Shown in pieces: positions 19,136-49,985 of a stretch of 59,582 nucleotides of DNA. A program made the translations under genes and the position numbers. The number at the start of each line of letters is the position of its first letter. Positions within the stretch are counted from its first letter, which is position 1. The DNA comes from a virus. Taxonomy: Duplodnaviria; Caudoviricetes. Below the pieces are notes generated by a model. It was not told where the DNA came from and did not search any database. It saw only the letters and a list, made by a program, of their open reading frames with translations. The stretch spans positions 1 through 59,582 of the IMG/VR virus record IMGVR_UViG_3300025082_000008; one strand, written 5' to 3'.

Positions 19136-19144
19136 TTGATTTTC

Positions 19145-19644: not shown

Positions 19645-19650
19645 GAACTC

Positions 19651-20762: not shown

Positions 20763-20765
20763 TTC

Positions 20766-25872: not shown

Positions 25873-27497
25873 TGGCAAAATACAACAAGCAGCTACAGGT
25901 CAAAGAAATTGTAAAGTGCGGTAAAAATCCAGAATATTTTTTTAAAAATTATCTGAAAATACAACACCCAGTAAGCGGTCTTATATCGTTTGATACTTAC
26001 GAATTCCAGGACAAGTGCATAGAAGACTTTTTGGAACATAGATTTAATGTTGTTTTAAAGTCTAGACAATTGGGAATATCAACACTTGTTGCTGCATACG
26101 CAGTTTGGATGGCGATCTTTCAGAGAGAGAAGAATATTCTCATTATTGCTACTAAACTAGCAGTTGCTCAAAACTTTATCATAAAGGTAAAGACAATGTT
26201 GAGATCTTTGCCAAAATGGCTTCTTCTTCCTGAGATCGTTGCTAACAACAAGCAGATGGTCCAGTTCAGCCATGGCTCACAGATAAAAGCAATTCCGACA
26301 TCAGAAGATGCAGGAAGATCTGAAGCACTTTCACTGTTGATAGTTGACGAAGCAGCATTCGTTAGAAACTTTGATACGATCTGGACAGGAATCTATCCAA
26401 CAATTTCAACTGGCGGCCGCGTCATTATTCTATCAACACCCAACGGTGTTGGAGGCCAGTACCATAAGTTGTACACAGATGCAGAAGCTGGTTTAAATGA
26501 ATTTAATCCAATAAAGATAATGTGGGATGAACATCCCGAACGTGGTCAGGAGTGGTTTGACGAAGTCACAAAGAATCTGTCAAAACGACAGATAGCGCAG
26601 GAGTACCTCTGCGACTTTGCAACAAGCGGAGAGACTTTTTTAGATGCATCTTCACTAGAGTGGCTTTCTACATTAGTTGAGAAGCCCATCGATAGGAAGG
26701 GAAATGATAAGAATGTATGGATTTGGAAATATCCGCTATCAGAGCATGACTACGTTCTATCTGCTGATGTCTCAAGAGGTGATTCTAAGGATTACTCTAC
26801 GTTTCACATAATTGATAATGAAACATCAGAAGTAGTTGCTGAGTATAAGGGAAAAATAAGACCTGATACATTTGCAGAGTTAATTAATGAGTTCGGCTTA
26901 ATGTATAATAATGCAATTGCCTGTCCTGAGAATAATAGCTATGGATATGCTACAATACTTAAGCTACAAGAGTTAAAGTATCCGAGGCTCTACTATAGAA
27001 AGAGAAGAGTTCCTTTGATAGGCGACTATGTTGCTCCAGCTTCTGCAGACACAGCCGGATTCAATACAAATGGTAAGACAAGATCAACAATTCTATCAAA
27101 ATTAGAAGAAGTTATTAGAAACAAACAGCTGATTATTCGTTCTTCAAGATTTTATGAAGAGTTAAAGGTGTTCACATGGAAGACAGGCAGGGCACAAGCA
27201 AAACGAGGGTTTAACGATGATCTTGTTATGAGCCTTGCAATAGGCGCTTGGCTATTTGATGCTTCATCAGACTATAGTAAAAACTCTAAAGCTTTGAACG
27301 ACGCTATATTGGGAGGGTTTCAGGTACAAAAAAGACAGTATAATGATACTCCTGCCGCAGTGTTACAGCCTGTGGGTGTATATGCTTCAAGTGCTGAGAA
27401 GGAAAATAGCGACAAGGGAAATATAGTTAAGCAAGATGTTAATAAAACTTTAGAACGTGGTAATATACCAGAAGATATGTTATGGCTTTTAAAGTAG
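25869..27497 (+). CDS. terL: Terminase large subunit (T4 gp17-like)
   Basis: KSRQLGIST Walker A variant, LIVDEAAF Walker B, STPNG coupling motif, nuclease SADVSRG...DYS...DDLVMS. Confidence 0.93.
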   Translation: MMAKYNKQLQVKEIVKCGKNPEYFFKNYLKIQHPVSGLISFDTYEFQDKCIEDFLEHRFNVVLKSRQLGISTLVAAYAVWMAIFQREKNILIIATKLAVAQNFIIKVKTMLRSLPKWLLLPEIVANNKQMVQFSHGSQIKAIPTSEDAGRSEALSLLIVDEAAFVRNFDTIWTGIYPTISTGGRVIILSTPNGVGGQYHKLYTDAEAGLNEFNPIKIMWDEHPERGQEWFDEVTKNLSKRQIAQEYLCDFATSGETFLDASSLEWLSTLVEKPIDRKGNDKNVWIWKYPLSEHDYVLSADVSRGDSKDYSTFHIIDNETSEVVAEYKGKIRPDTFAELINEFGLMYNNAIACPENNSYGYATILKLQELKYPRLYYRKRRVPLIGDYVAPASADTAGFNTNGKTRSTILSKLEEVIRNKQLIIRSSRFYEELKVFTWKTGRAQAKRGFNDDLVMSLAIGAWLFDASSDYSKNSKALNDAILGGFQVQKRQYNDTPAAVLQPVGVYASSAEKENSDKGNIVKQDVNKTLERGNIPEDMLWLLK

Positions 27498-27505: not shown

Positions 27506-29545
27506 ATGGCTGATATAAAAAACAGTAGAAATTTATTTAACAGACTCACACGACTCTTTAGAAGTGGTCCAGTTGTTAAAAGAAATGTCATGTCACCTGA
27601 TGCAAAGTACACTTCATCAGCGTTCGACATGTTTCGCAAGAATCAAAGTCAAGTTTACAGCACTGCTATGTCTGCCTATGGGACATATGACAGGATGGCT
27701 AGATACAGTGATTTCAGCGAGATGGAGTACACACCAGAAATTGGCAGCGCTCTAGACATATACGCAGAAGAATCATGCTCTTCAGACGAATCCGGAAAAG
27801 TTTTGCACATCTTCACAGATAATGTAAAAATTAAACAGATACTAGAAGAACTATTTTATGACACCTTAAATATTGAATTCAATATGACGCCGTGGATTAG
27901 AAATCTTGTTAAGTATGGTGATTTCTTTTTATTCAATGATGTTAATCCAAAGTACGGTGTAATTAATGCATATCCGCTTCCAATTTCTGAGATTGAGCGA
28001 GAGGAAGGATTTGATCCGAAGGACCCAATGGCAGTACGATTCAGGTGGGTCACACAAGGAAATCAGGTCTTGGAAAACTGGCAAATTTCTCACATGAGAC
28101 TGCTGGGAAATGATGCGTTTCTTCCATACGGTTCGTCGGTATTAGAGCCCGCAAGGCGAATTTGGCGACAGCTCATTCTCATTGAAGATGCAATGTTAGT
28201 CTACAGGATAGTTCGAGCGCCAGAAAGACGAGTGTTTAAGATTGATGTAGGCAACGTCCCACCAGACGATGTGGCATCATACATGGAAAAAGCAACGTCC
28301 TCGCTTAAGAGAGCTTCAATAACAGACCACACATCCGGCAGAGTTGATCTACGCTATAATCCGTTGTCTGTTGATGAGGATTACTTTATTCCAGTAAGAG
28401 GTTCAGAGTCAGGAACAGATATTGTCTCATTGGCAGGCGGCACAATTGCAGGTGAGACAAATGATGTCGAGTACATACAGAAAAAGTTATTTGCTGCGTT
28501 AAAAATACCTAAGGCATATCTCGGATATGACGAAGGTCTAGGTGCGAAAGCCACCTTGTCTCAGGAAGATATACGATTTAGCAGGACTATAGCAAGAATT
28601 CAACGAACAATACTGTCTGAAATGAACAAGATTGCAATTGTGCATCTGTACTGCAATGGCTTCACAGATGAGGATTTGTTAGATTTTAAGCTAAAGCTAT
28701 CAAATCCATCAACAATCGCGCAACAACAAAAGCTTGAGCTGATTAAGTCTAGATTTGAAGCAGCGACATCAGCAGTAGCAGTAGAGGGAATGGTTGATAA
28801 ACTTTGGGTACAAAAAAATATTCTTCGATTGTCAGATGCAGAAGTTGCTGCAATTAAGGATGGCCTAAAGAAGGATAAGGTTATGTCGCTTGAAATTGAA
28901 GCCACGCAGATAACTGCTCCGGAAGGCCCAGAGTCTGCCATGGCCGGTGAACCAGCGCTAGGTCCCGCTATTGATATAGGCCCACCTGCAGGAGCTCCTG
29001 AGGCAGGAGTACTAGATTTTGGAGCACCAGCACTAGCTGAGACAAATTCAGTAAATGACGATGTCGTTCCAATTAGAATACAACAAAAAATTGATGACAT
29101 CGTGTCTGTGTTAGATGAAGATAATACTCCGGATAAAGAAGGTTCAGATTCTGAAATGACAGAATTTGAAGAGTTTCAAAAAGAGTATGAAATAGACTAT
29201 AAGATTAAAAGATCGAAGGCAAAAAATACTCGAAAGGCAGAGTTTGCAGATAACATGTCAAGTACTTATCAGCGAACTAGAAAACAAAATAGTGTTGATG
29301 GTATGTCAAGGCTTGGTGGCGATTTAAGGAGTTTAGTAAAGCCTAATCTAAATGAAGAAGATTTTGATATAGGAGAATACTTAGATAGTAAGATAGTTCA
29401 AAACGCACACATGACCAGCCAGATTAAATCAACTTTGAGTAAGCTGAATACACAGTTTGGTAAGGAAGAAAAACGACAAATTGTCATATCTGAGAATAAT
29501 TCATCAGAGGAAGTAAATTTAAATGAAGACACAGACGAAACATAA
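27506..29545 (+). CDS. Portal protein (T4 gp20-like) with acidic C-terminal extension
   Basis: EDAMLVYRIVRAPERRVFKIDVGNVP, EDYFIPVRG, YIQKKLFAALKIP. Confidence 0.92.
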   Translation: MADIKNSRNLFNRLTRLFRSGPVVKRNVMSPDAKYTSSAFDMFRKNQSQVYSTAMSAYGTYDRMARYSDFSEMEYTPEIGSALDIYAEESCSSDESGKVLHIFTDNVKIKQILEELFYDTLNIEFNMTPWIRNLVKYGDFFLFNDVNPKYGVINAYPLPISEIEREEGFDPKDPMAVRFRWVTQGNQVLENWQISHMRLLGNDAFLPYGSSVLEPARRIWRQLILIEDAMLVYRIVRAPERRVFKIDVGNVPPDDVASYMEKATSSLKRASITDHTSGRVDLRYNPLSVDEDYFIPVRGSESGTDIVSLAGGTIAGETNDVEYIQKKLFAALKIPKAYLGYDEGLGAKATLSQEDIRFSRTIARIQRTILSEMNKIAIVHLYCNGFTDEDLLDFKLKLSNPSTIAQQQKLELIKSRFEAATSAVAVEGMVDKLWVQKNILRLSDAEVAAIKDGLKKDKVMSLEIEATQITAPEGPESAMAGEPALGPAIDIGPPAGAPEAGVLDFGAPALAETNSVNDDVVPIRIQQKIDDIVSVLDEDNTPDKEGSDSEMTEFEEFQKEYEIDYKIKRSKAKNTRKAEFADNMSSTYQRTRKQNSVDGMSRLGGDLRSLVKPNLNEEDFDIGEYLDSKIVQNAHMTSQIKSTLSKLNTQFGKEEKRQIVISENNSSEEVNLNEDTDET

Positions 29546-30390: not shown

Positions 30391-30996
30391 ATGAGTAGCC
30401 TTACAGTTTTAAGAGAGTGGACACCAATATCTTGCTCAAAAAAGATGCTAAAAGAGTCAAAAGAAAAATATGGTAAAGTAATGTTAAGCGGCATTATTCA
30501 AAGAGCAAATACGTTAAATCAAAACGGAAGAATCTATCCTAAGTCAATTCTAGAAAGAGAGATAATGAATTATCAGAAGCTGATTAAGGAAAATCGCGCG
30601 CTAGGCGAGTGTGATCATCCAGACTCATCTGTTGTTGAGCTAAAAAATGTTTCTCATATTGTTAGAGAAGCACGCATGGAAGGTGATGATGTTTACGGGA
30701 CTATTGAAATATTAGATACACCAAGCGGAAAGATAATACAGAGCTTGATTGAAAGTGAAATAACACTAGGGATCAGCTCAAGAGGTGTGGGTTCAACAAC
30801 ATCAAAAGGAGATTCTCAAGTTGTTCAAGATGATTTTCAGTTAATTTGTTTTGATATGGTAAGTGAGCCCAGCACTCCTGGCGCGTACATGCTTCGCGAG
30901 GGAAAGACAATCCAGAGAAAAGAGTTAGACAAATTTTTTAACAGATCAGACAAAATTGATAGAATTTTTAATGAAATATTAAGCTGGGATAAGTGA
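30391..30996 (+). CDS. Prohead core protease (T4 gp21-like)
   Basis: NQNGRIYP, ALGECDHP, VSH, GISSRGVGS, FDMVSEPSTPGA. Confidence 0.92.
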   Translation: MSSLTVLREWTPISCSKKMLKESKEKYGKVMLSGIIQRANTLNQNGRIYPKSILEREIMNYQKLIKENRALGECDHPDSSVVELKNVSHIVREARMEGDDVYGTIEILDTPSGKIIQSLIESEITLGISSRGVGSTTSKGDSQVVQDDFQLICFDMVSEPSTPGAYMLREGKTIQRKELDKFFNRSDKIDRIFNEILSWDK

Positions 30997-31514
30997 TGAA
31001 GCTAGATAAACAGGCACTTAAGACTATTGTTAAAGAATGTTTGGTTGAGATATTAGCTGAAGGAATAGTTGCACCTGACCGCGGAAAGTCGTCAAGAAAA
31101 AAGAGAGCGCTATCTGAGGCAATTCAGGCTAGAAGCGAAAAAAGTCGCTCAATTGAGGGTCTCGGTGTGTCAAATGATACACGAAGAACCCGCGCTGATC
31201 CTGTGCGAAAGCCCAGCTATCTTGATAGTATTAGGTTTGGTGATGAAAATGGCGCCAGTGAACAAACAACAAGGCACAGCCAAGCAGTTTCTAATGTGAC
31301 TAAGTCAATAACAAAAGACCCGCTGATGCAGGAACTGTTGGCAGACACAGCAAATACAACCCTGCAAGAGCAAGTTTCAGCTGAGGGCTCTGGTGCTAGA
31401 TCTGCTGTATTGTCAAAACCTGCTGATGAGGCAGCCGCGATTGTGAGACAAAATGAGCCTGAAGATATTTTTGGCGAATCTGCAAAAAATTGGGCGACTT
31501 TAGCGTTTAGTTGA
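30993..31514 (+). CDS. Hypothetical head-associated protein
   Basis: 173 aa; MKLDKQALKTIVKECLVEILAEG; overlaps the protease stop. Confidence 0.65.
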   Translation: MMKLDKQALKTIVKECLVEILAEGIVAPDRGKSSRKKRALSEAIQARSEKSRSIEGLGVSNDTRRTRADPVRKPSYLDSIRFGDENGASEQTTRHSQAVSNVTKSITKDPLMQELLADTANTTLQEQVSAEGSGARSAVLSKPADEAAAIVRQNEPEDIFGESAKNWATLAFS

Positions 31515-31583: not shown

Positions 31584-31850
31584 ATGGCCAAAGTAAGAAA
31601 GTTGACACCTCGACGTTTAAAGAGAATCATTGAAGAAGAAAAAAGAAGGCTCAGAATTTCAAAGCCCAGGCCTGTGACTAAGTCAAAGCCCAGGACAAGA
31701 AAGAAGAAGCACAATTCGTCATCAAGTGTCGTAGCACAGATAAGAGCGCTAGCCGAATTAAAGCGCCGCGAGACAAAGGCAGCTAAGCGCCTAAAGAGAA
31801 TCTATGAAGCCCGGAAGTTAATCAAGAAAGAATTGATTAGGAGACTATAA
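31584..31850 (+). CDS. Small highly basic protein, possible DNA-binding core protein
   Basis: 88 aa, very Arg/Lys-rich; SD GAGGAGG. Confidence 0.7.
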   Translation: MAKVRKLTPRRLKRIIEEEKRRLRISKPRPVTKSKPRTRKKKHNSSSSVVAQIRALAELKRRETKAAKRLKRIYEARKLIKKELIRRL

Positions 31851-33034: not shown

Positions 33035-34495
33035 ATGTCGAGTAAAATTTTTGAGGAAGCAATAGCTGATGCAAAAAAGCTTAGAGAAGTTGCAGAAGAC
33101 AATGCAAAGAAAGCAATTCTTGAAGCTGTCACACCGAAAATAAGACATTTTATAGAAGAGCAGCTGTTAGAATCGAGTGATACTAACGAAGACATGTTCA
33201 TCGCTGATGAAAGAGAAGAGCTATCTGAAGATGTTTTTTTAGATGAGCATGCATTGAGCTCTTTGGTTGCTATGCTTGGAGGTGACGAAATATTAAACTC
33301 GCTTAGTGAGTCACATTCAGCTTCAGTGATAAATAGTTCTGTAAAAGAGGCAGTTGCTTCTCTTTCGAGCAGACAAAGAGATAAATTATTAGAAATTGCA
33401 AATAAAATTAACAATACTGTGGATAATTTAGCAAATAGCGAGATAAGTAATAAAGTCGTCAAAAATGAGGAGAATTCAGTTATGGCAGATAGAAATTTTT
33501 ACGAAGTTGATCTAAAAGCGCTTCGTGAAGCACTTGAAGAAGACTTAGGAACCGAGAACACGGCAACAGAAGGTCAAGAGCTCTACCCAGAAGAAGGGGT
33601 AGACGAGATGGACTGGGCTACAGAAGATAGCGACCTGTCTGAGATGCTTCAAGAGTTGCGTTTAGTTCTTGACTTAGGCCCAGATATTGAAGAAGATGCA
33701 CTGCCAGAAGATCTCCTCGGTATGGTGCTTCCTGACGAAGACGAAGAAGGCGATGAAGACCTCGACATGGACGATGAAGATGAAGGTGATGAAGGTGATG
33801 AAGGCGAATTCGAGATGCCTGACTTCGGTGACCTTGGAGATGATGCGGGTGAAGAGCCCCCACCGGCTGAGGAATCTTATACAGTCGACGCGACGATGCT
33901 CAAAGAGGAGCTCGCGCGCGCGCGACGCATGCTGCGTGAAGGTAATGTTGACCATCACTTCGGAGGCAAGGGCACATCAAAGGCCGGCACGAAGAACGCG
34001 TTTGGTGGATCAGGAAAGAAGAATGTAGGTTACAAAAACGCCTTCGGAGGCGGAAGCTACGGCTCAGATCCATTTGAAAACCCACCACAGATTAATAAAT
34101 TAAACGAGGCTATACGCCAGCTGAGACGCATGAATCGATCTCAGAAAGAGAAACTGAATAAATACAGAGGCGCGATCAATACGCTTCGTGAACAGTTGGA
34201 AGATCTCAACCTATTTAATGCTAAGCTGCTTTATGTGAATAAGCTTCTTCAGAACAAGACTCTTTCTGAGTCTGAGAAGAAGTCAGTCATTAAGGCGCTC
34301 GATGAGGCAAGAACTCTTAGAGAGGCTAAGTCATTATATGGTTCTTTGACCGAGACATTCGGTAGAGGATCCAAAGGTAACTTAACTGAGTCTAGACGAT
34401 ACGGAAGTTCGTCTAGAGCAACTACGTCCTCGTCTGGCACTGGTCGAGTCAATGGTGAACTCGACAGATGGCAGACACTAGCAGGACTTAAGTAA
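33035..34495 (+). CDS. Prohead scaffolding/core protein (T4 gp22-like position)
   Basis: Directly upstream of the capsid gene; acidic, coiled-coil; many LxE sites (LLES, LSES, LREG, LNEA, LTES); ends RWQTLAGLK. Confidence 0.8.
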   Translation: MSSKIFEEAIADAKKLREVAEDNAKKAILEAVTPKIRHFIEEQLLESSDTNEDMFIADEREELSEDVFLDEHALSSLVAMLGGDEILNSLSESHSASVINSSVKEAVASLSSRQRDKLLEIANKINNTVDNLANSEISNKVVKNEENSVMADRNFYEVDLKALREALEEDLGTENTATEGQELYPEEGVDEMDWATEDSDLSEMLQELRLVLDLGPDIEEDALPEDLLGMVLPDEDEEGDEDLDMDDEDEGDEGDEGEFEMPDFGDLGDDAGEEPPPAEESYTVDATMLKEELARARRMLREGNVDHHFGGKGTSKAGTKNAFGGSGKKNVGYKNAFGGGSYGSDPFENPPQINKLNEAIRQLRRMNRSQKEKLNKYRGAINTLREQLEDLNLFNAKLLYVNKLLQNKTLSESEKKSVIKALDEARTLREAKSLYGSLTETFGRGSKGNLTESRRYGSSSRATTSSSGTGRVNGELDRWQTLAGLK

Positions 34496-34540: not shown

Positions 34541-36457
34541 ATGTCTAGAACATTTTCCCTCAATCAGTTAACGGAAGGGATCCGTGATCGCAATGTGGGC
34601 GCCGAAGGGCGTCGTCTAGTCGAGAAATGGACCCGAACCGGTCTACTGAGAGGACTCGGAGATTACAAGCGCGAGGCTATGTCTCGTCTGCTTGAAAACC
34701 AAGCCGCACAGGTACTACGTGAGGCCAACGTGCTTGGTTCTTCAAACGCTGACTCAGGTCGTGTCGATGGATTTTCAAACATCGCTTTCCCGATCGTGCG
34801 TCGTGTTTTCGGCGGACTCGTTGCAAACGAGCTCGTTTCAATTCAGCCCATGAGCTTACCGTCTGGTCTGCTCTTCTACCTTGACTACACCTACGGCTCT
34901 GATGTCGGCGGTGACAGCTCACAGTCAGGCACAAACCTGACAGGTACTAACGTCACGTATGAACAAGGCCAGTCGCTATATAATAACCCCCCAGGCTCCG
35001 GTGTCCGTTCAGGTTCACTTGCTGTAGGTGGTCATTACGACTTAGTCGGTACGTCATACACACAACAGCATGCAACTGCAGTGCTTGGTGCAGGTGACTG
35101 CATAATGTTCTCCGGATCATTCGGTGGCGGATCTGCACAGGTCGCAGCAAATGCTGTCCGTGCTACAACTAGTGGCTCTGATGGTAAGCTACTTCAGTTC
35201 GACCCGCAGATCGTACAGCTGATAGAAGAGGATAACCCTCACACATTCTTGATCGTGGCCGCGAACGTGCTGTCATCTTCAAATAGTGTCAGGATGGATC
35301 AGACTGCAGTTAAGTCATTAGCACTTTACGATGCAGGTAGCGGTCAGTCAGCTCTCGCGAGCTTAGGTGACTCAGTCCAAGGTGGCTCAGGCATCAAGAA
35401 CGTGCGACGTCTTAACCAGCTAGGTACGTGGAACTCGACAACTTCGAAGTTTACTGTAAACGCGCTTAAGCCGCTTACAGACGCTGATGCAGGCGTTCTT
35501 TGTGTCGTTTCAGGAACGTACGCAGGCTCAATTGCTGCTACGTCAACCAACTTCCAGTATCTTACAGCATCATTCGTTATCTCTGATAGCGTATCTGCTG
35601 CAGGTGGAACTGGTGGAACACTCACAATTCCTAGCTTCGAGTCTGACTTCGCAGCTACACCTTCACCCGTCATCCCTGAGATCGACATCAAGATCGAGTC
35701 AATCGCTGTTACAGCGACGACCCGTAAGCTCCGTGCTCGCTGGTCACCAGAACTCGCTCAGGATCTGAACGCTTACCACAGCCTCGACGCTGAGGTTGAG
35801 CTCACACAGATCCTCTCTGAGCAGATCGCTCTAGAGATCGATCGTGAGATCCTTAACGATCTCCTGGTAGAGGCTGCAGGTGCAAACTATTACTGGTCAC
35901 GTAGTCCTGGTAAGTTCGTTAATAAGAACAGCGGCGCTGCTGCTACTCTTGCTAGCACGCTAGCCACAGGGCCTCAGTTCACTGGTACAGTTCGTGAGTG
36001 GTACGAGACACTCGTCGAGACAATCATCGACGTGGCTAACGAGATCCACAGAAAGACTCTCAGAGGTTCTGCTAACTTCATCGTGGTTTCACCTGAAGTT
36101 GCAACGATCTTCGAGGCCTCTGTGCTCTACAAGCCCACTATCAAGCTTGATGGTGATGGACAGGTCTCTGCTCCATTCTCACTCGGTGCTGCTGCAATTG
36201 GTAGCTTGAGCAACCGTTTCACGGTCTATAAGGACCCCTACTTCCCACGCAACAAGGTACTTGTTGGGTACAAGGGCGGTAGCTACCTTGAGACAGGTTA
36301 CGTATACGCTCCTTATGTCCCGCTTATCGTCACCCCGACGATCTTTGCGCCAGAGGACTTCACACCCCGTAAGGGCGTGATGACTCGCTACGGCAAGAAG
36401 ATGGTTCGAGCTGACTTCTACGGTACAGTTACAGTCATGGATATGGACATCATCTAA
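34541..36457 (+). CDS. Major capsid protein (T4 gp23-like)
   Basis: LLENQ, VSIQPMSLPSGLLFY, TRKLRARWSPELAQDLNAYHSLDAEVEL, YAPYVPL, GVMTRYG; strong SD AAGGAG. Confidence 0.95.
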   Translation: MSRTFSLNQLTEGIRDRNVGAEGRRLVEKWTRTGLLRGLGDYKREAMSRLLENQAAQVLREANVLGSSNADSGRVDGFSNIAFPIVRRVFGGLVANELVSIQPMSLPSGLLFYLDYTYGSDVGGDSSQSGTNLTGTNVTYEQGQSLYNNPPGSGVRSGSLAVGGHYDLVGTSYTQQHATAVLGAGDCIMFSGSFGGGSAQVAANAVRATTSGSDGKLLQFDPQIVQLIEEDNPHTFLIVAANVLSSSNSVRMDQTAVKSLALYDAGSGQSALASLGDSVQGGSGIKNVRRLNQLGTWNSTTSKFTVNALKPLTDADAGVLCVVSGTYAGSIAATSTNFQYLTASFVISDSVSAAGGTGGTLTIPSFESDFAATPSPVIPEIDIKIESIAVTATTRKLRARWSPELAQDLNAYHSLDAEVELTQILSEQIALEIDREILNDLLVEAAGANYYWSRSPGKFVNKNSGAAATLASTLATGPQFTGTVREWYETLVETIIDVANEIHRKTLRGSANFIVVSPEVATIFEASVLYKPTIKLDGDGQVSAPFSLGAAAIGSLSNRFTVYKDPYFPRNKVLVGYKGGSYLETGYVYAPYVPLIVTPTIFAPEDFTPRKGVMTRYGKKMVRADFYGTVTVMDMDII

Positions 36458-38395: not shown

Positions 38396-38457
38396 GCCCG
38401 GTTTATTATAATCACCTGACACCCACAGGGAATCGGAATCATTGGGAGCAAAAGGAG
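38396..38457 (+). ncRNA. Putative structured cis-regulatory leader RNA (pseudoknot)
   Basis: CCGGTTT/GAATCGG outer stem, CCTG/CAGG inner stem, loop CCCA complementary to TGGG just before the SD. Confidence 0.4.
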
Positions 38458-38462
38458 AGATT

Positions 38463-39071
38463 ATGCCAAAAGTAACATACACAGTAGGAAAAGGTTTAGT
38501 TCAGGAAAGTGGTGGCGGAATCACAATGAACTATCTGGATTTCCTATCAGGAAACCTAAACAACCTGACAGACACCGTAGCAGCAGTTACAGATGCTGAA
38601 GCTGATAGTGCAAAAGCCAGCGCGACCGCTACCACAATCGCAGCTGCTCGAGTAGCACCAAATGCTGTCAACACCCTAGCATGGGATTCCGGCGCCGCAG
38701 GATCTATCTATCTGCCAAGAGGAACTGTTGATACACACTTGGTAGTACACCTTACCGGTGACCCGGATGAGGCCAATGCACTTGATATCTTTTGTCAAGG
38801 TGCAGCTGATGCTAGCGGATCAGAAGTTTTGGCAAAGCAGGTAATCAGCTCTAACGTTGGTTCTGCAGCAGCCGCCTCTGTTTTGACTGCAGGTACATCC
38901 ACTGTACCAACTTCTGTTAAACTAATTTATACGCCGGCTGCTACAGCAACAAATTTTTTACAAGCAGGTAGCTTGATTCATTTTTATTGCATTGTAGAAA
39001 ACCAATGGCTGGTCAGAATTCAGAATGTTACTGAAGGTGTTGGTAGTACCGGTGCTTTGACAGTCGCTTAA
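38463..39071 (+). CDS. Hypothetical Ala/Thr/Gly-rich protein, possible capsid decoration or fibre protein
   Basis: MPKVTYTVGKGLVQE...; SD AAGGAG at 38452-57 favours ATG 38463 over TTG 38442; followed by a strong terminator. Confidence 0.65.
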   Translation: MPKVTYTVGKGLVQESGGGITMNYLDFLSGNLNNLTDTVAAVTDAEADSAKASATATTIAAARVAPNAVNTLAWDSGAAGSIYLPRGTVDTHLVVHLTGDPDEANALDIFCQGAADASGSEVLAKQVISSNVGSAAAASVLTAGTSTVPTSVKLIYTPAATATNFLQAGSLIHFYCIVENQWLVRIQNVTEGVGSTGALTVA

Positions 39072-39094: not shown

Positions 39095-39122
39095 AAAGAC
39101 ACCCGCAAGGGTGTCTTTTTTT
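39095..39122 (+). terminator. Rho-independent terminator
   Basis: AAAGACACCC-GCAA-GGGTGTCTTT plus T-tract; GNRA loop. Confidence 0.9.
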
Positions 39123-39162
39123 ATTTCTTACGTACACGACGTTGATTTGTGTGCACTTTCAC

Positions 39163-39191
39163 GTGCAATAACATAGTTATAGGTGTATAAT
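39163..39191 (+). promoter_or_regulatory. Putative early/middle promoter with an embedded ATAGTTA motif
   Basis: GTGCAA 39163-68, 17 nt, TATAAT 39186-91; ATAGTTAT at 39173-80. Confidence 0.6.
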
Positions 39192-39225
39192 ATAAGTGTT
39201 AAACTAGAAGCAAGTGAGGGTACAC

Positions 39226-39948
39226 ATGAAGAAGTCATCTAGGGTAAGTGAAGGCACACGCGAAGATGCAGTTGCTGCTGCTATTTCAAATCTTGAGAAT
39301 CAATTCGGAAAAGGCACAGTCATGAGAAAAAATCTAGCTGATCACATGAGCAAGCAGATGAGCAGGACAAGCGACATGTCAATAGTTCATGATATCGCGC
39401 TAGCGCATGACATGATGATAGAGCTAGCTCCGTCTCTGGTAGAGGCTGAATCTCAACAGCAACCTAGAGCACCTGGCACACCGATAGGCCCAAGTAAGTT
39501 TAGAGAAGTCGTCGGTCAAATTGTTATGAGAACAGATCTTGATAAACGATTTATTACATTTCATTTAAGATACGCAGTAAATGATGCCAAGTCAGGTGAG
39601 CTACTTTCATTACCCACAGGAGCAGACCTTATCACAAAAGAAACAACACGCCGTGAAGAAGCTGAGCGTGCAAGAGTAGAGCGACAGCGAATCGATGATG
39701 AGTCGACTGAGATGATAGCTGGCAGAAGAATCAAGACGCTTCCGGCACACGGCCGAGGCCAAGGACGTCCAACTTACGGTCACACTAGTATAGGAACATC
39801 ATTTGCACCTGAGGGTATGACAGACGAGGATGCAGTAGAATATTTATCTAATAAATACAGAGGCGCGCCCATGTGGAGATTTGATATAAGCAGAGATCCA
39901 GAGACAGGTAAGCTATACGCGTACTTTGAAATTGATACATCAGGGTGA
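39226..39948 (+). CDS. Hypothetical protein with RecA N-terminal-like peptide and no RecA ATPase core
   Basis: REDAVAAAISNLENQFGKGTVMR; no Walker motifs downstream; ATG at 39226 follows GAGG. Confidence 0.7.
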   Translation: MKKSSRVSEGTREDAVAAAISNLENQFGKGTVMRKNLADHMSKQMSRTSDMSIVHDIALAHDMMIELAPSLVEAESQQQPRAPGTPIGPSKFREVVGQIVMRTDLDKRFITFHLRYAVNDAKSGELLSLPTGADLITKETTRREEAERARVERQRIDDESTEMIAGRRIKTLPAHGRGQGRPTYGHTSIGTSFAPEGMTDEDAVEYLSNKYRGAPMWRFDISRDPETGKLYAYFEIDTSG

Positions 39949-39954: not shown

Positions 39955-40200
39955 ATGCCGTATCGTATTAGAAAACAAGATTGTGTAGACTCAAAGGGTA
40001 ATACCGGCACGTATGTCTTACAAAAAAAGAAAAATGGAAAGTGGGTAAAAGCATCCTGCCATTCATCTAGGGAAAAAGCTGAAGGTGCAAGACGAGCCAG
40101 AGGAATACAAAAAGAAGAAAAAGTTTTTAGTATGTCATTAAATGAGTTGAGAGAGTTGATTAGAGAAGTATTTTTTGAAAATAGTTTAGAAAAATCTTGA
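39955..40200 (+). CDS. Small basic hypothetical protein
   Basis: 81 aa; C-terminal SLNELRELIREVFFE helix. Confidence 0.65.
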   Translation: MPYRIRKQDCVDSKGNTGTYVLQKKKNGKWVKASCHSSREKAEGARRARGIQKEEKVFSMSLNELRELIREVFFENSLEKS

Positions 40201-40286: not shown

Positions 40287-41462
40287 GTGGCGACATTCGC
40301 GAATACCACGAATCCAACACCCTTTGGGTTATTTGATTCAGAGACATCATTTTTAACTGATGCTGATAGCATGGTCACTTTTGTTAAGCGGAAGCTAGGT
40401 GATGACATACTTTCTGTTGAATTAACAAAAAAACAGATATTCTCAAATTTTGAAGAAGCTGTTCTTGAGTATAGTTCAATTTTAAATCAATACCAGGCAA
40501 AATCACAGCTTGTTAACTACTTAGGCTTCCCAACGGGCAGCGCTGACAATCCAGATATGGAGACTGGCGCTGAAGAAAGGTTCGTAAGAGATAATCTAGA
40601 GTACTTGTCAAGATTTGCTGAACCATACGCGATGGAAGCGGGCATAGGGGGCTCTTATAACACACTGTCTGGGTCAATAAGTCTCCAACAGGGTCGACAA
40701 GACTATAATCTATATACAGAGCTGTCTGGTGCTAATGGTGGATTGTTTGATAACTCAAAAGGTAAGTTAAGAATCGTAGAGGTTTTTCACTATAATCCAC
40801 AAGCAGCATATAGATTCTTTGATACGACGTCAGCTATTAATTACTTGAATAATGAGTTCTCATTTGAATCTTTTACACCTGAGACAATATTTTATGTGCT
40901 CCCTGTGTTTGAAGATATTCTTAGAGCCGGCCAGCTAGACCTATCTAATAGAGTTAGAAGATCAAACTACTCTTATGAAATAAACGGTACAAATCTTAGA
41001 ATATATCCTACACCAACAGTAGAATCAGATACAAAAAAATTGTGGGTGAAAATAAGACAGTATCCTGATCCAACATCACCATCGTATGAGGACAAAACAA
41101 TTGATGGTGTGTCTAACATGTCGAATCTCCCGTTTGGGAATCTTAAATACGCAAAAATAAACTCTATAGGAAAACAGTGGATAAGACAATTTTCGTTAGC
41201 ACTTAGTAGAGAACAATTGGGAATAGTTAGATCAAAATTTGGAAGCATTCCTGTGCCCGGCGCAGAAGTTCAGTTAAATGGAAGCGACTTAGTATCATCT
41301 GGTCGCGAAGATAAGGAGAAGTTGATAACACAGTTAAGAGAGATGTTAGACACGTTGACATATGATAAGCTAATCGAGATACAGTCGGCTAGAGCTGAGC
41401 AGATGAACAAGCAGTTGCGTTTCGTTCCAATGCCAAATGGCAAAGCAATATTTATGGGGTAA
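40287..41462 (+). CDS. Neck/head-tail adaptor protein (T4 gp13-like)
   Basis: KRKLGDDILSVEL, WIRQFSLALSREQLGIVRSKF, VQLNG; position before tail genes. Confidence 0.75.
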   Translation: MATFANTTNPTPFGLFDSETSFLTDADSMVTFVKRKLGDDILSVELTKKQIFSNFEEAVLEYSSILNQYQAKSQLVNYLGFPTGSADNPDMETGAEERFVRDNLEYLSRFAEPYAMEAGIGGSYNTLSGSISLQQGRQDYNLYTELSGANGGLFDNSKGKLRIVEVFHYNPQAAYRFFDTTSAINYLNNEFSFESFTPETIFYVLPVFEDILRAGQLDLSNRVRRSNYSYEINGTNLRIYPTPTVESDTKKLWVKIRQYPDPTSPSYEDKTIDGVSNMSNLPFGNLKYAKINSIGKQWIRQFSLALSREQLGIVRSKFGSIPVPGAEVQLNGSDLVSSGREDKEKLITQLREMLDTLTYDKLIEIQSARAEQMNKQLRFVPMPNGKAIFMG

Positions 41463-43399: not shown

Positions 43400-46300
43400 T
43401 TGATGGCAGAACAGACTTTCAGATCTCCGGGTTTTTTTGAGAGAGAAATTGACTTAACCCAGAGAACACGAGAAATAGAAGGCGTCCCTGCAGGAGTCAT
43501 TGGAATGGCCCAAAAAGGTCCTGCATTTGTGCCTGTCACAGTAGGCTCTTTTGTCGACTTTGAAAGAAGATTCGGAACGCTAGACACTGAATTATTTGGC
43601 CCGTATGCAGTCAATGAGTGGCTTGAACATAGAACTGCATTAACTTACATAAGAGTTCTCGGCGCCGGCGCTAATGCAGACTCAACAGATATTGCTGCTA
43701 CAGTTGCAAAAGGAACAGTTAAGAATGCGGGATTCCGAGTGCTTGGTAAGGGTGAAGAGAGCGACACCCCAGCAGCTTTAGCAGGTGGCGGAAGACTCCG
43801 AGGTGGTGTGCAGTTCATATCAGCAGTACATAATGTGATAACAGAGTATGAGTCTGTGGGATACCCGATCTTTTCTGACAACGACTCATTTGATACGTCT
43901 ACTGATCTTAGGCTGGTCCGCGGAATGGTGATGATGGCCTCAGGCGCAAGAATGGAGGTGCTTCATCACAATAGCTACTACTCCGGAGTGCAGACGACGA
44001 CAGATCTAGCTCAGATATCGTCATATGACGGAACTTCTGGGGAAGGAACATTCAAACTTATAATTTCTGCCTCCGGTACTGGCTTTAGTAATGATGAGGG
44101 TTTCCCTGGCATTAGAATTTACACGGCATCGTTAGATCCGTCTAGCAAGCATTACATCGGAAAGATCTTAAATACAAGCACTGACAGGTTTCATGCAGAG
44201 CAACACATACTCTACGCAGATTTTGCAGTCGAAAGCGAACTTGCTAGGGTTAAGTATGATGCTTCTAACCCATCAGTTGGAATCTTATCCGGATCAACAG
44301 AGACATCAAACTCTAGTGGCGACACGTCATTAAGGTTCTGCGATGTGTACGGATCTTTCAACACGAGATACCAGGCCGCTAGAACAACATCATTTATCTC
44401 ACAGCCTTACGGCGCTGATGAATATGATCTATTCCACTTCGAGATGATAGATGATGGAACTGCCGGCAATGCTAAGGTGAAGGTCTCAATTTCAAATCTT
44501 AAAAGATCCACAAACCCAAAGAGCAAGTATGGATCGTTCACAGTTTTAATTAGAGACTTCACAGACACAGACACTAACATGAAGATTCTTGAGCAGTATC
44601 CTCTTTGCACGCTTAATCCTGCAGATGATGACTACATAGCTAATAGAATTGGTGACTTAAAGGTTTCATATAACTTTGATGCAGAGACTGATTCTGAGAA
44701 GAGATTAATGGTTTCAGGAAAACGACCTAATAAGTCAGCATATGTCCGAGTTAAGATGACAGCAGCTGCTGAAAATGATGATATTCCTGCTGATGCTCTA
44801 CCCTTTGGATTCCGAGGCTTGCCTGTTCCAAAGACGACAGATAACCTAAGAGATGACACATCAACACTTTCTGTAGGCTCAAATAGGGGAAGACTAACAA
44901 GAGTCGCAGGAGGAATTGCAGAAACTGGAACTGAGACGCTAACACATGCGGTCGTGCCTCCTGTTCCACTGAGATTTAAGGCTACAAGAAATGCAATTCT
45001 TCAGACAGACACACCAGGCTTCACAGGTGCCCCCGGCGCTCTCGAATTAGCTGATAATAGATACTTCTTTGGAGTAAAGTTTGAGCGTTGTCCGGTGACA
45101 GCAAGTCTAGACAATGCTGTCTTGACATCAAATGCTTCATCTGCAAAGAATCCTCTCGTTTCAGCTTACTCAAAATTCTTAGGAATTGCCAAGTTAGACG
45201 CACTAACTACTGGATCTGGTGCAGACGCTTTTTGTAATAATAAGTTCACGCTGGCAAAAGTTGCTTTCTATAATAGTACTACAGCTGCAACTACAACAAT
45301 TGATTCAGAAGTAGACGTAGTATTCACAGGGTCAGTTGATGAGCACATGCGAGAAGCAGCTTACTTAAGAAACGGAAGATTAGTGACGCCGCAGTATACA
45401 ATTCAAGATGGGGCAACAAATCCAAGACGAATAACATTTGCTTCTCTTGCTGCAGCCCGTTCAGCAACCAAGTTCAATAGATTTACTGATTACATGAAGT
45501 TTACAAACATGTTCTACGGTGGTTTTGACGGCCTAAACATTCTTGATAGAGATCAAAGGCTCATGAATGATAAAGCATCATCAGTAGGCACCGGCGGCAA
45601 GGCCGTGGGTGATGAGCTAGGATACACGAATCTCTCTACAGGCTCTTCACCAGGGTCAGGAAAAGAGAATAACATAATTAGTTCATATAGAACCGCTGCA
45701 AAGATCATAACAGATCCAATGGCAACACGCGTTAACGTGATTTCTGTACCGGGAATTAGAGACTCTTATGTTACAGACTTCTTAAGTGATCTAACTAGAA
45801 CTTATAGTAAGGCAATCTATATTATGGATATGCCAGCTTATGATGACGATACAAATCGTCTATATGACGATGCAACAGTTCGTCCAAATGTTAGACGATC
45901 AGTTGAACAGTTTGAGAGCAGAGCACTTGACAACAACTATGTCGCGACATATTTTCCTGACGTGATTATAGAAGATCCTATCAATAGGGCATCAGTGAAT
46001 GTGCCGGCTTCAATTGCAGCTGTCGGCGCATTGGCGTACAATGATGCTGTTGCTTATCCGTGGTTCGCTCCTGCAGGATTTAACAGAGGAGCTCTAGACA
46101 ATGTTATGAACACTGAAGTGAGGCTAACGGCTGAAGATAGAAATGTCATGTATGAATCAATGATTAATCCTATCGCTAACTTTCCTGACGGTGGATTTGT
46201 GATCTTCGGTCAGAAAACATTGCAGCAGGCAAGATCAGCACTTGATCGTGTTAATGTTAGAAGAATGCTTCTAGAGGTAAAACGAATAGTGTCAGACATT

Positions 46301-46558
46301 GCTGTTAAGATCATCTTCGAGCAGAACACACCTGCAACAAGAGCTAGATTCGTCGCACAGGTGACACCACAATTAGCAACGATACAAGCTCAGCAGGGAA
46401 TTGACCAGTTTAAGGTTGTTATGGATTCTTCAAACAATACAGATGAAGACATCGAGCAAAATCGACTAAACGGACGAATTGTTTTAGTTCCGACGAGAGC
46501 TGTTGAGTTTATCGCAATAGACTTTATTATAACAAATTCTGGCGTAAGTTTTGAATGA
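43400..46558 (+). CDS. Tail sheath protein 1
   Basis: SPGFFEREIDLT, KGPAFVP, PWFAPAGFNRG, FGQKTLQ, SALDRVNVRRML, PTRAVEFI. Confidence 0.93.
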   Translation: MMAEQTFRSPGFFEREIDLTQRTREIEGVPAGVIGMAQKGPAFVPVTVGSFVDFERRFGTLDTELFGPYAVNEWLEHRTALTYIRVLGAGANADSTDIAATVAKGTVKNAGFRVLGKGEESDTPAALAGGGRLRGGVQFISAVHNVITEYESVGYPIFSDNDSFDTSTDLRLVRGMVMMASGARMEVLHHNSYYSGVQTTTDLAQISSYDGTSGEGTFKLIISASGTGFSNDEGFPGIRIYTASLDPSSKHYIGKILNTSTDRFHAEQHILYADFAVESELARVKYDASNPSVGILSGSTETSNSSGDTSLRFCDVYGSFNTRYQAARTTSFISQPYGADEYDLFHFEMIDDGTAGNAKVKVSISNLKRSTNPKSKYGSFTVLIRDFTDTDTNMKILEQYPLCTLNPADDDYIANRIGDLKVSYNFDAETDSEKRLMVSGKRPNKSAYVRVKMTAAAENDDIPADALPFGFRGLPVPKTTDNLRDDTSTLSVGSNRGRLTRVAGGIAETGTETLTHAVVPPVPLRFKATRNAILQTDTPGFTGAPGALELADNRYFFGVKFERCPVTASLDNAVLTSNASSAKNPLVSAYSKFLGIAKLDALTTGSGADAFCNNKFTLAKVAFYNSTTAATTTIDSEVDVVFTGSVDEHMREAAYLRNGRLVTPQYTIQDGATNPRRITFASLAAARSATKFNRFTDYMKFTNMFYGGFDGLNILDRDQRLMNDKASSVGTGGKAVGDELGYTNLSTGSSPGSGKENNIISSYRTAAKIITDPMATRVNVISVPGIRDSYVTDFLSDLTRTYSKAIYIMDMPAYDDDTNRLYDDATVRPNVRRSVEQFESRALDNNYVATYFPDVIIEDPINRASVNVPASIAAVGALAYNDAVAYPWFAPAGFNRGALDNVMNTEVRLTAEDRNVMYESMINPIANFPDGGFVIFGQKTLQQARSALDRVNVRRMLLEVKRIVSDIAVKIIFEQNTPATRARFVAQVTPQLATIQAQQGIDQFKVVMDSSNNTDEDIEQNRLNGRIVLVPTRAVEFIAIDFIITNSGVSFE

Positions 46559-46598: not shown

Positions 46599-49500
46599 AT
46601 GGCAGAATTAACATTTAAATCAGCAGGCGTTAGCACAAGAGAAATTGATCTCTCTGGTCCTAGAAAAGTAGGACCAGTTGGCGTACCTGCGGGTGTCATC
46701 GGAACAGCCTTGGAGGGCCCGGCTTACGTGCCCATTAAGGTTGCAACGTTTGATGAGTTTAGTAATACATTCGGTGCAACAGACGGAGAGAAGTTTGGCC
46801 CGATTGCTGTTCATGAGTGGTTAAGGAATGCGCAGTCTCTTGTTTACATTAGAGTACTTGGCGCAGGTGACGGAAAGAAGAAGAGCTCTACGACAGGTAA
46901 CGTGACAAATGCAGGGTTTGTGGTTGGCGATCAGCTAGTTCAAGAGAACGGCATGCTCGGTGATAATCCTTGGGCAAATACAGCTACAAACTTAGGAATA
47001 AAGGGTAGAACTTACTTCCTCGGTTGCTTCATGTCAGAGTCGAACGGTAGCACGATATTTAGTGATGCTGGGATACAAGGTGCATCTCTCGCAGCAGGTG
47101 CAAAAGCATCTTGTTCTATTCAGTTTTCCGGATGGCCCACAACCGATGATGAACTTGTAATAACTGATGCAGCGGGCCTCTCGAGAACATACACAGCCAA
47201 GGAAAGTATTTCACTCGCTGACAACGAATATGACCGAGACGGCGGTTCCGCTGGTTCGACAGCCGCGTCGCTAATCCTCTGCATTGAGCACGCATCCGGC
47301 CATGCCGGCTCAATTACTGCAGTTATAGATGGGGATGCGGGCGGCCTGACGTTGACACAAGCTGTTGGAGGCGCAGCAGGAAACACAGCATGTGATGCTA
47401 GCTCAGTAGATAATACGACAGTAACCGGAGTTAGTCCGACAACAGCGAATACGTTTACTGGCGGAATTAATGGAGATCACGCAGTTCCAATACTCCGCGG
47501 AGTTCTTCTCGCACCTAGCGGTGTTATCCTTCATCTAAGCGGCGGAACAACTGCTGTAACAACTAAGCCTGGTGACACAGACACAGCTAGAGCAAATGAA
47601 TTGACTGTCCACGGTCAGAAGGGCGCAATGACAGGTGCAGTTCACTTAGCATCACAAGAATTCACGATGCTGATGAACGGATATGCAGGAACGACATCAA
47701 ATCTTACACACGTAACCGCTTCATTTGACATGACTTCACCGAGCTACTTCCCGAACGTTTTCAATACAGACCCATATCAGATCGAAGCAAGAGGCCACTT
47801 TTTATGCGCTTCTTACGATGTATATCCTGATCTTGCAGCTGTGACAGGAAGTTCTGCCGTTACAGAAGGTGTGTATACAGTAGGCTCAGACTCATCATCG
47901 CAAGAAGACATCGCGTTTCTCCTTACGTCATCTATCGCAAGGGGCACAGTTGATTCAACTGTACCAATGTACGAGTCATTTGAAGATAGATTCACACACG
48001 CAGAATCGCCTTATGTGATATCACAAGCGTATGGTGGCTCCGCATATGATCTGTTTAAGGTGCATGCACTTTCAGACGGCGCAGGCATATCAACAAAATT
48101 TAAGATATCAATTGAAAACTTGAATAAGTCAACATCTGACACTGATTTATTTGGAACATTTGATCTTCTTGTCAGAAGATTCTCAGACACTGATGATGAA
48201 AGAGTTGTGCTAGAGAGCTTCAGAGGACTAAGTCTTGATGCTTCTTCTGACAGATACATTGCTCGTTCGATTGGCGACCAGAACGCATTTTATAACTTTG
48301 ACAATGACCTCGAGTCACAAAAAATAGTTGTCGACGGTTCTCATCCTGTTAGATCACGATATATCAGGGTCCAGATGTCAAATGCTATGAAGAAGTCAGA
48401 AGTACCTGACGGCGCTCTACCTCTCGGCTTCAGAGGGCCCAAACATCTTGTGACTAGTGGCTCATTACTTGCAGGTGAACCTGACGCGCGCTGCTACATA
48501 GCAACAGACTTACACAAGCGTGTAAGAGAGGTGCCCATACCTTACAGAGAGTCAATCTCCCAAGGCACAGGCCTCCAGAAGAGAGATGACTCTAGACTGT
48601 ACTGGGGTGTCCAGAGCACAAGAAAGACATCAGCAACAGAGCCCAATACTGTCGGCCTTTTTGATCAATCACTATTCTCATTCGCGAAGCACCTTCCGAA
48701 CCACAGAGATGACAGCACAAAGTTTTGGGTAGGTGACAACAACGGTGTCTCAAATGTTGCAGGCTCAGTTCTTGACTGTGACTTGTTCAACAATAACAAA
48801 TTCACTCTTGAGAACGTTAAGGTCAGAACAGGATCAGACGGTGTTGCAGACGCTGAGTATTGGCTTAGCGCGTCTTATGTAAGGGTAGGAAGTATCTCTG
48901 CTGATGATGCCAATAAGCTCCGTGCGTTTAAAGTTGATGATCTTGATAAGGTTTCAAATAGAAAGTTTGCAAAATTTACATTCATACTCCAGGGAGGCTT
49001 CGACGGCACAAATATCTTTGATAAGGACAAGCGAGAGCTATCAAATGCAGCGGCCAAGAGAGAGATTGATGATGAGAACCAGGGAGAGACAGCAGGTCCT
49101 ACAGTTTCAGCTTACAGGAAGGCAATTGATGTTATGTCATCAAAGACAGATGTCGAACTACAGCTACTTGCAATTCCAGGTATGAGGCACACATCAATAA
49201 CAGACTATGCTATTAATGCAACTGAGCAAAGATTCGATGCGATGTACATCATGGACATCGAGGAAAGGGATCAGTATAACAGTGTAATAACAGCATCGGG
49301 CGGCGATCAGATGCCTCACGTCTCAAATACGGTCACAGCATTTAAGAATAGATCACTTGACAGCTCCTTTGGAGCCGCATACTTCCCAGATGTCATCGTG
49401 ACAGATCCAACAACTAGAGCGCTAGTCCAGGTTCCTCCGACAGCAGCTGTGTTGGGTGCTTACTCAGTGAATGATAGACTCGGTCACCCGTGGTTCGCAC

Positions 49501-49985
49501 CCGCAGGTTTCACGAGAGGCGCGCTATCAACAGTTGAGATGGCAAGTGTAAGACTTAATAGAACAAACTTAGACGATCTATACGATGCAGATATTAACCC
49601 TATCACAGCATTCCCCGGAACAGGTGTAACAGTCTGGGGACAGAAGACACTTTTAGCTGCCTCATCAGCCCTGGATAGGGTTAACGTAAGACGGCTTCTC
49701 ATAAGTGTTAGAAGAAAGGTTCGCAATATTGCAAATACACTGCTGTTTGAACCTAACAGGGTTGAGACGTTAGAGAAGTTCAGCGCTCTTGTGAATCCAG
49801 TTCTTCAGCAGGTTCAGGAGCAGAGTGGTGTTGACAGGTTTAAGGTCGTGATCGATACGACAACAACAACACAAGCTGATGTTGAGAATAATACGATTAG
49901 AGGAAAGATCTTCTTGCAGCCCACTCGAGCTGTTGAATTCATTGCACTTGACTTTGTTGTCACAAATGCAGGTTCAGAAATTTAA
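46599..49985 (+). CDS. Tail sheath protein 2
   Basis: SAGVSTREIDLS, PWFAPAGFTRG, WGQKTL, SALDRVNVRRLL, PTRAVEFI. Confidence 0.93.
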   Translation: MAELTFKSAGVSTREIDLSGPRKVGPVGVPAGVIGTALEGPAYVPIKVATFDEFSNTFGATDGEKFGPIAVHEWLRNAQSLVYIRVLGAGDGKKKSSTTGNVTNAGFVVGDQLVQENGMLGDNPWANTATNLGIKGRTYFLGCFMSESNGSTIFSDAGIQGASLAAGAKASCSIQFSGWPTTDDELVITDAAGLSRTYTAKESISLADNEYDRDGGSAGSTAASLILCIEHASGHAGSITAVIDGDAGGLTLTQAVGGAAGNTACDASSVDNTTVTGVSPTTANTFTGGINGDHAVPILRGVLLAPSGVILHLSGGTTAVTTKPGDTDTARANELTVHGQKGAMTGAVHLASQEFTMLMNGYAGTTSNLTHVTASFDMTSPSYFPNVFNTDPYQIEARGHFLCASYDVYPDLAAVTGSSAVTEGVYTVGSDSSSQEDIAFLLTSSIARGTVDSTVPMYESFEDRFTHAESPYVISQAYGGSAYDLFKVHALSDGAGISTKFKISIENLNKSTSDTDLFGTFDLLVRRFSDTDDERVVLESFRGLSLDASSDRYIARSIGDQNAFYNFDNDLESQKIVVDGSHPVRSRYIRVQMSNAMKKSEVPDGALPLGFRGPKHLVTSGSLLAGEPDARCYIATDLHKRVREVPIPYRESISQGTGLQKRDDSRLYWGVQSTRKTSATEPNTVGLFDQSLFSFAKHLPNHRDDSTKFWVGDNNGVSNVAGSVLDCDLFNNNKFTLENVKVRTGSDGVADAEYWLSASYVRVGSISADDANKLRAFKVDDLDKVSNRKFAKFTFILQGGFDGTNIFDKDKRELSNAAAKREIDDENQGETAGPTVSAYRKAIDVMSSKTDVELQLLAIPGMRHTSITDYAINATEQRFDAMYIMDIEERDQYNSVITASGGDQMPHVSNTVTAFKNRSLDSSFGAAYFPDVIVTDPTTRALVQVPPTAAVLGAYSVNDRLGHPWFAPAGFTRGALSTVEMASVRLNRTNLDDLYDADINPITAFPGTGVTVWGQKTLLAASSALDRVNVRRLLISVRRKVRNIANTLLFEPNRVETLEKFSALVNPVLQQVQEQSGVDRFKVVIDTTTTTQADVENNTIRGKIFLQPTRAVEFIALDFVVTNAGSEI

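Follow-up and report, generated by a model that had tools for sequence, protein, structure and literature searches.

The protein that we call P0001, encoded by an uncultured far-T4-like myovirus of ocean origin, carries near its N-terminus a copy of the arm by which bacterial RecA subunits bind one another, and it has no RecA core behind that arm. We propose, with a probability of roughly 0.5, that P0001 mimics the RecA subunit interface and caps or sequesters the RecA of its host. Homology, conservation of the contact face, the missing core, modularity and genomic setting enter this estimate as observations, and binding enters it as in silico support; that the net effect is inhibition, and that host RecA rather than a phage recombinase is the target, we infer. 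The window, by which we mean the whole stretch of DNA analysed, is the IMG/VR virus record IMGVR_UViG_3300025082_000008 (59,582 nucleotides, or 59.6 kb), a genome fragment with a CheckV completeness estimate of 24%. The P0001 gene lies on the plus strand in an open reading frame (ORF) at 39214-39948 that opens with GTG; the start is likely the ATG at 39226, which has GAGGG just before it and gives a product of 240 amino acids (aa). The parts of the gene are as follows.

39226-39948, plus strand: P0001 coding sequence (240 aa plus stop); 8 homologues at 45-80% identity
39226-39252, plus strand: residues 1-9 (MKKSSRVSE), a shortened family leader ending in a gp21-type V-S-E site
39253-39333, plus strand: residues 10-36, the RecA copy, spanning helix A, the FGKG turn and strand 0 (~4-30 in E. 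coli RecA)
39334-39405, plus strand: residues 37-60, weaker RecA similarity, to the DIAL motif; modelled as helical
39406-39705, plus strand: residues 61-160, helical middle with a conserved LDKRFI.FHL.KA helix
39706-39945, plus strand: residues 161-240, small alpha/beta C-terminal domain (PTYGHT...GAPMW...EIDTSG)

RecA similarity of the N-terminal segment

Residues 12-34 of P0001 (REDAVAAAISNLENQFGKGTVMR) fall exactly at 39259-39327 and match E. coli RecA residues 6-28 at 12 of 23 positions. An earlier sequence-only reading of this DNA had singled out the stretch as a RecA N-terminal polymerisation peptide, and Pfam, a profile search of the PDB and the conservation of the contact face all bear this out. 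The sole Pfam family reported for P0001 was PF00154 (RecA), with E 0.019 and 14.9 bits, residues 15-60 aligning with positions 2-45 of the 262 in the profile; the curated cut-off of the family is 27 bits, and P0001 falls below it. PF00154 was also the top Pfam family (E<=1) for 4 of the 15 family members that carry the RecA-like module, when these were searched singly. A profile built from nine homologues and run against 177,635 PDB sequences returned 21 matches, every one of them a RecA and every one at the N-terminus. Single-copy RecA chains had E-values from 1.8e-4 to 0.04, and constructs of several fused RecA copies reached far better scores, since every copy contributed a match. The resemblance to RecA N-termini, which the same reading had left to a profile comparison, is thus significant, and the peptide is kept among homologues. 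Judged by sequence, the RecA match is above chance level.

Bacterial RecA N-termini align with residues 10-60 of P0001 at 41-52% identity across ~47-49 residues, so that the similarity passes the helix-strand arm and extends to about RecA residue 55. Candidates for this comparison were chosen by an exact 8-residue pattern, and 428 of 600 stretches were confirmed. The best matches came from Blastocatellia, Verrucomicrobiaceae, Actinomycetes and many marine Gammaproteobacteria. It had been suggested that the best matches may indicate the host, an expectation that did not hold up: they come from mixed phyla, and because the candidates were preselected by a pattern that biases them, we draw no host from them.

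The Walker A motif (G....GK[ST]) is absent from all 15 module-bearing members, in agreement with the earlier claim that the protein has neither Walker motifs nor a RecA core; P0001 is without that core and is not a RecA. A broken recA pseudogene is ruled out by the intact frame and by conservation of the non-RecA parts in the eight homologues. A compositional match of an Ala-rich helix is ruled out as well, given the conserved FGKG turn and strand and the fact that all PDB matches are RecA.

Conserved contact face and predicted docking on RecA

In the RecA subunit interface as described in PMC6237804, helix A (D3-F21) and strand 0 (I26-R28) dock on strand 3 (114/115-117/118) of the neighbouring subunit, and the S5 legend of PMC4364692 gives the N-helix binding region as residues 89, 124, 127-128, 131-132 and 135-138. 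Ala substitutions of K6 and R28 have been made in a fused RecA dimer, in its N-terminal domain (PMC6237804), and P0001 itself has Arg at the positions equivalent to both.

Conservation was counted over the 15 module-bearing members in RecA numbering. Ala13, Gly22 and Gly24 are each present in all 15, as are Ile or Leu at position 17, Phe, Tyr or His at position 21 and Ile or Val at position 26. A hydrophobic residue occupies position 10 in 14 members, and Arg at position 6 and Ala9 are each found in 12. Positions off this face (7, 8, 11, 12, 14, 16, 19 and 20) are more variable, yet Ala15 (12/15) and Glu18 (15/15) are also kept. Members down to 27% overall identity still carry IE.QFG.GSI.

Co-folding was run with E. 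coli RecA residues 34-333 and residues 8-80 of the family alignment, in three runs and three controls. The runs scored 0.75, 0.76 and 0.74, with 0.00 for the best of the three controls, and shared at least 55% of their contacts; the score mark used is reached by 58 of 80 solved complexes and by 2 of 110 mismatched pairs. Swiss-Prot numbering counts Met1, and PDB RecA chains of 352 and 353 residues with a one-residue offset are consistent with this. After a shift of -1, the predicted contacts on RecA are 89, 91, 101, 111-117, 119-120, 124, 127-128, 131-132 and 134-138, which cover 10 of the 10 published N-helix site residues together with strand 3 residues 114-117. From the phage protein, residues 11-37 are predicted to make contact, among them all seven conserved positions (6, 9, 10, 13, 17, 21 and 26). 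The model thus supports docking of the peptide on the RecA N-helix acceptor site in the native manner. Co-folding with a RecA core had been named beforehand as a check on the RecA idea, and the predicted placement on the acceptor site agrees with that idea, with the reservation that the program may remember solved structures.

A modular family

P0001 has eight homologues, all metagenomic and none with a usable name. PHROGs assigned it no family, and a tblastn search of 50,697 GenBank phage records gave no match, so that no cultured relative was found there. An exhaustive profile search of 1.84 billion representatives returned 19 proteins at E<=0.001, and 25 family proteins were compared in all. 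The RecA copy forms the N-terminal module in 15 of the 25; nine have another module or none, and one fragment could not be judged. The leader, M-K-[IL]-[TS]-x-x-Q-L-R-x-[IL]-I-x-E, is complete in 18 of the 25 and is followed by one or more [LIVM]-x-E sites. As read from these alignments, the family is modular, built of a leader and an [LIVM]-x-E site, then an N-terminal module that can be swapped, a middle region of helices and, at the C-terminus, a small domain.

The C-terminal domain, of ~80 residues, also stands alone in proteins of 92-104 aa, behind a leader in three of them (P0014, P0017 and P0019) and leaderless in a fourth (P0015). Its invariants are Y, A-P, P-x-W, D-P and a fixed E-x-D-x-S at the extreme end; two family members have a different C-terminal tail. 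Structure models reached a mean pLDDT of 84.2 for P0001 and 83.4 for a 97-aa member. The whole P0001 model had no PDB match at E<=0.001, the C-terminal domain model had none at that threshold in either PDB or BFVD, and an Atlas structure search returned generic alpha/beta folds only (TM ~0.5).

A scan of genome contigs with the family alignment gave 187 pattern matches, among which no relative was confirmed and no prophage copy was found, a result limited by the search pattern. A metagenome scan with a 9-row alignment found 41 loci that match the N-terminal segment only (query residues 2-60 at most) and are of recA type by their pattern. Two of the 15 module-bearing members match weakly the Pfam family PhiKZ_gp85, a vertex-binding protein (best E 0.0059), a match that could be fortuitous or could point to an association with the capsid.

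Proposed mechanism and alternatives

Residues 10-36 of P0001 copy the arm with which a RecA subunit reaches helix E and strand 3 of the next one. We hypothesize that this arm fills the free acceptor site of a host RecA monomer, or of a filament end that exposes that site, and that, since P0001 has the arm without an ATPase core or acceptor surface, no further subunit would add and polymerisation would stop. The outcome would be host RecA that is capped or sequestered, or at least the tethering of the rest of P0001 to RecA.

Another explanation is that the module descends from a recA fragment and no longer contacts RecA, the helix having been re-used for self-association, for folding on the protein's own helical middle or for docking inside the capsid. 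In its favour, the family core is also found with no such module, the neighbours of the gene are structural, the helix has moderate confidence in the P0001 monomer model (pLDDT 68-78), and there are the two weak matches to the PhiKZ vertex-binding family. A relic of this kind could drift freely from the RecA consensus, yet members at 27% identity keep IE.QFG.GSI, and the seven conserved positions are all among the predicted RecA contacts. We therefore consider it unlikely that the module has lost its partner.

The same profile, co-fold and conservation results would also serve for a protein that docks on host RecA and brings or nucleates it on phage DNA, or that uses the arm to tether a C-terminal domain. 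BRC repeats, as described in PMC2800230, both block and permit RAD51 assembly, and the ~200 conserved residues that follow the arm are more than a simple cap needs. However, searches of Pfam, PDB, BFVD and Atlas found no DNA-binding fold or family in the rest of P0001, which is near neutral and has no basic domain, and the phage's relatives own a recombinase, leaving their need for host RecA not obvious. A loader or mediator role consequently seems to us improbable.

The window encodes no recombinase of its own. Four related records (137-237 kb, terminase 73-76% identical) were searched, and all four hold a RecA-family protein of 381-392 aa (219-224 bits), which raises the prospect that P0001 regulates a phage recombinase or links cargo to it. 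In these relatives (L059-L062, records G001-G004) the recombinase gene always adjoins an ORF of 318-325 aa that is flap or 5'-3' exonuclease-like by eye. At its N-terminus the phage-type RecA shows no IEKQFGKG motif, and substitutions and insertions set its acceptor region apart from that of bacterial RecA. The family profile compared with the phage-type RecA gave an hhalign probability of 0.5%, with no match across the four genomes. Because the phage recombinase has a different N-terminus that the family profile does not match, the arm of P0001 copies the bacterial type of RecA, and its bacterial consensus, retained by the module, points to host RecA as both model and probable target. Homologues of P0001 occur sporadically, none having been found in 12 other related records, all incomplete, though 4 of the 12 carry a recombinase; as a positive control, the same homologue search recovered at E 6.9e-138 the own record of L002, the single syntenic relative of the window found, which carries a homologous gene. 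With a recombinase in all four relatives as its chief support and these differences against it, the phage's own enzyme is the least probable target that we weighed, and a poor candidate.

Several observations weigh against the capping of host RecA by P0001. None of the 15 module-bearing members scores above the Pfam RecA cut-off. Position 28, Arg in RecA, varies among them (R in five, D in four, N in three, K in two). The co-folded partner reached a pLDDT of 55-57 only, the co-fold may reflect model memory of RecA filament structures already solved, and the E. coli RecA used there is a stand-in for that of the actual host. The family core (middle helix and C-terminal domain) occurs without the RecA module in 9 of the 25 proteins, so the function of the core must be something else. 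The phage's own recombinase may lie outside the window. Finally, the promoter-like site ahead of the P0001 gene is of a type common to three DNA-metabolism genes and not to its structural neighbours.

Leader, protease site and possible head packaging

T4 gp21 cuts after L/I-X-E, as PMC9026906 describes. In the T4 internal proteins, a diverse and rapidly evolving set of cargo, residues 1-10 serve as a capsid targeting sequence that directs loading into the prohead and is cleaved off afterwards (PMC9026906, PMC3012670). We tentatively suggest, as something that could well prove otherwise, that P0001 travels in the head, that the prohead protease cuts after [LIVM]-x-E and so exposes the arm, and that the protein enters the cell with the DNA. 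In 13 of the 15 module-bearing members an [LIVM]-x-E site stands 8-19 residues before the Ile of IE.QFG; the two that lack a site so placed are a fragment and a leaderless protein. Native RecA has 16 residues ahead of that Ile, so a cut at [LIVM]-x-E would leave the arm at a RecA-like N-terminus. The sequence-only reading had likened the VSE-G directly ahead of the RecA-like peptide of P0001 to LTE-G and LRE-G in the capsid and scaffold proteins, and both motifs are present: the major capsid protein (34541-36457) has LTE-G as its residues 10-13, and an acidic 486-aa protein (33035-34495) contains LREG. Its idea that prohead protease could expose the peptide is likewise consistent with the gp21-type protease gene in the window and with the sites in the 13 members. 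Two points speak against packaging. In P0001 and its closest homologue the leader is shortened by a 13-residue deletion relative to the MKKLSR...INE of the other homologues, which makes the idea weaker for P0001 itself, and the promoter-like site of the gene is of the type found before DNA-metabolism genes.

A leader profile was built from 18 leaders and run on 356 ORFs of the window and L002. It matched unrelated ORFs at window 17510-17827 and at L002 1251-2072 and 6298-6438, with E-values from 1.6e-6 to 4.7e-5. Leader-type starts (MKKLSRASLRKLIRNE..., MIPKLTQSQIKMIKEEL..., MKLDKQALKTIVKE...ILAE-G) were noted in the window ORFs 17510-17827, 19210-19644, 30993-31514 and 31584-31850. The match of 17510-17827 (E 2.8e-5) is the sole strong one among these; 30993-31514, directly after the protease gene, and 31584-31850 matched weakly (E ~0.7-0.8), and 19210-19644, whose leader likeness was read by eye, did not match the profile. 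Like an internal head protein, the product of 31584-31850 is strongly basic. L002 1251-2072 encodes a leader-tagged protein of 273 aa whose C-terminal half is, by eye, like a glycosidase of the lysozyme/chitinase type.

The slot upstream of the neck gene was compared in five relatives (L193-L197, 6.6-7.4 kb each), where 11 of 83 ORFs are leader-tagged (E<0.01). Leader-tagged ORFs crowd this neck-proximal slot, and P0001 therefore sits in a hot spot of such genes, which probably encode virion cargo. At 39955-40200, just 3' of P0001, an 81-aa ORF carries a leader-like stretch (MSLNELRELIREVFFE) at residues 61-74, near its end; at the matching place L002 has a 46-aa ORF (6298-6438) that opens with a full leader, and the window ORF may derive from a small leader gene by decay or fusion.

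More speculative, and in our view doubtful, is a modular cargo platform, in which an exchangeable N-terminal 'warhead' would follow a shared leader for head targeting and a site for the protease, with the same C-terminal body behind it. The RecA arm, as the warhead of this subfamily, would then be injected and would cap host RecA filaments within seconds of infection, and other members would bring other interface peptides against other host machines.

Genomic setting and upstream signals

The head genes of the window are T4-type, comprising terminase, portal, prohead protease and major capsid protein, and the P0001 gene lies between this head block and the neck/adaptor gene. The nearest cultured relatives by major capsid protein are Flavobacterium phage immuto (47%), Microcystis phage Mel-JY01 (44%) and Rhodothermus phage RM378 (40%).

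25869-27497: large terminase
27506-29545: portal
30391-30996: gp21-type prohead protease (phrog_207, E 3.6e-53)
34541-36457: gp23-type major capsid protein
39095-39118, plus strand: terminator-like hairpin with T-run (10-pair stem, 5 GC pairs, T-rich tail)
39162-39191, plus strand: two-part promoter-like site, CGTGCAAT-N16-TATAAT, with TATAAT 40 nucleotides (nt) ahead of the ATG
19144-19173, 19650-19679, 20765-20794 and 39162-39191 in the window, and 5383-5412 in L002: promoter-like element CGTGYAAY-N16-TATRAT
40287-41462: neck/adaptor gene

Further downstream, two adjacent and very large paralogues of 1052 and 1128 aa (43400-46558 and 46599-49985) have similar N-termini (MAEQTFRSPGFFEREIDL and MAELTFKSAGVSTREIDL) and are probably duplicated tail-sheath-like proteins.

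The terminator-like hairpin at 39095-39118 would end the upstream gene at 38442-39071 and set the transcription unit of P0001 apart. Both promoter-type motifs that had been noted upstream of the gene were recovered. The two-part promoter-like site has four copies in the window, a number reached in none of 100 shuffles, and the three copies other than that of P0001 precede genes 19210, 19710 and 20817 of a DNA-metabolism block. The sole site of this type in L002 (5383-5412) is directly upstream of the P0001 homologue. Plus-strand TATAAT is enriched between genes, with 8 of 39 copies within 1,498 intergenic bases, and six of these eight sit 35-49 nt ahead of a start codon. The combination of an upstream box with a good -10 in CGTGYAAY-N16-TATRAT recalls the layout of T4 middle promoters.

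Known systems and significance

BRC repeats of BRCA2 sit on the neighbour-binding pocket of RAD51 and control filament assembly (PMC2800230). Like P0001, they belong to a non-recombinase that holds a copy of the oligomerisation element of the recombinase, in their case the RAD51 FxxA, and by analogy P0001 would work most like a BRC repeat. The two differ in that the BRC copy is a 4-residue motif in a hairpin, resembling RAD51 over a short consensus, whereas P0001 has ~50 residues of homology to bacterial RecA, is encoded by a virus and is predicted to bind RecA. Short alpha-helical peptides inhibit RecA in vitro, according to the introduction of PMC2905775. The RecA N-terminal domain and synthetic N-helix peptides represent the same element and the same predicted acceptor site as P0001; P0001 is instead a natural protein with 200 further residues, a phage leader and no ATPase core. 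To judge from its title, the work cited for this inhibition by peptides deals with a redesigned RecA N-terminal helix.

Among mobile elements, PsiB of the F plasmid and RamT/RamA of ICEBs1 are modulators of RecA, and gp7 of GIL01 acts on LexA (PMC11841131). In its probable purpose P0001 is most like PsiB and RamT/RamA, which damp host RecA or SOS on or after entry. Pfam holds models for the PsiB, RecX and DinI families, and P0001, for which Pfam at E up to 10 lists PF00154 only, belongs to none of these and has no sequence relation to PsiB, RamT/RamA or gp7. The section of PMC11841131 on PsiB, RamT/RamA and gp7 does not describe them as copies of the RecA interface. A literature search, in which most subscription journals were not covered, turned up no phage or mobile-element protein described as copying the N-terminus of RecA.

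In setting, P0001 is most like the T4 internal proteins IPI-III and Alt, with their gp21-type protease and diverse, fast-changing cargo. As in the P0001 family, these carry a short leader that ends in L/I-X-E on otherwise unrelated proteins. The leader of the P0001 family is ~17-22 residues long, differs in sequence from that of T4 and is shortened in P0001.

RecA drives recombination, SOS induction and prophage induction. If our interpretation is correct, P0001 would be the bacterial-virus counterpart of the BRC repeat of BRCA2 and would offer a ready-made, evolution-tested template for inhibitors of RecA and SOS. Were it delivered in the virion, P0001 would join the few injected phage proteins whose target is known and bring a new activity to them; injected with the DNA, it would be a viral, pre-loaded counterpart of the BRC repeat. 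Our interpretation would also mean that phages capture fragments of host genes and use them as interface decoys.

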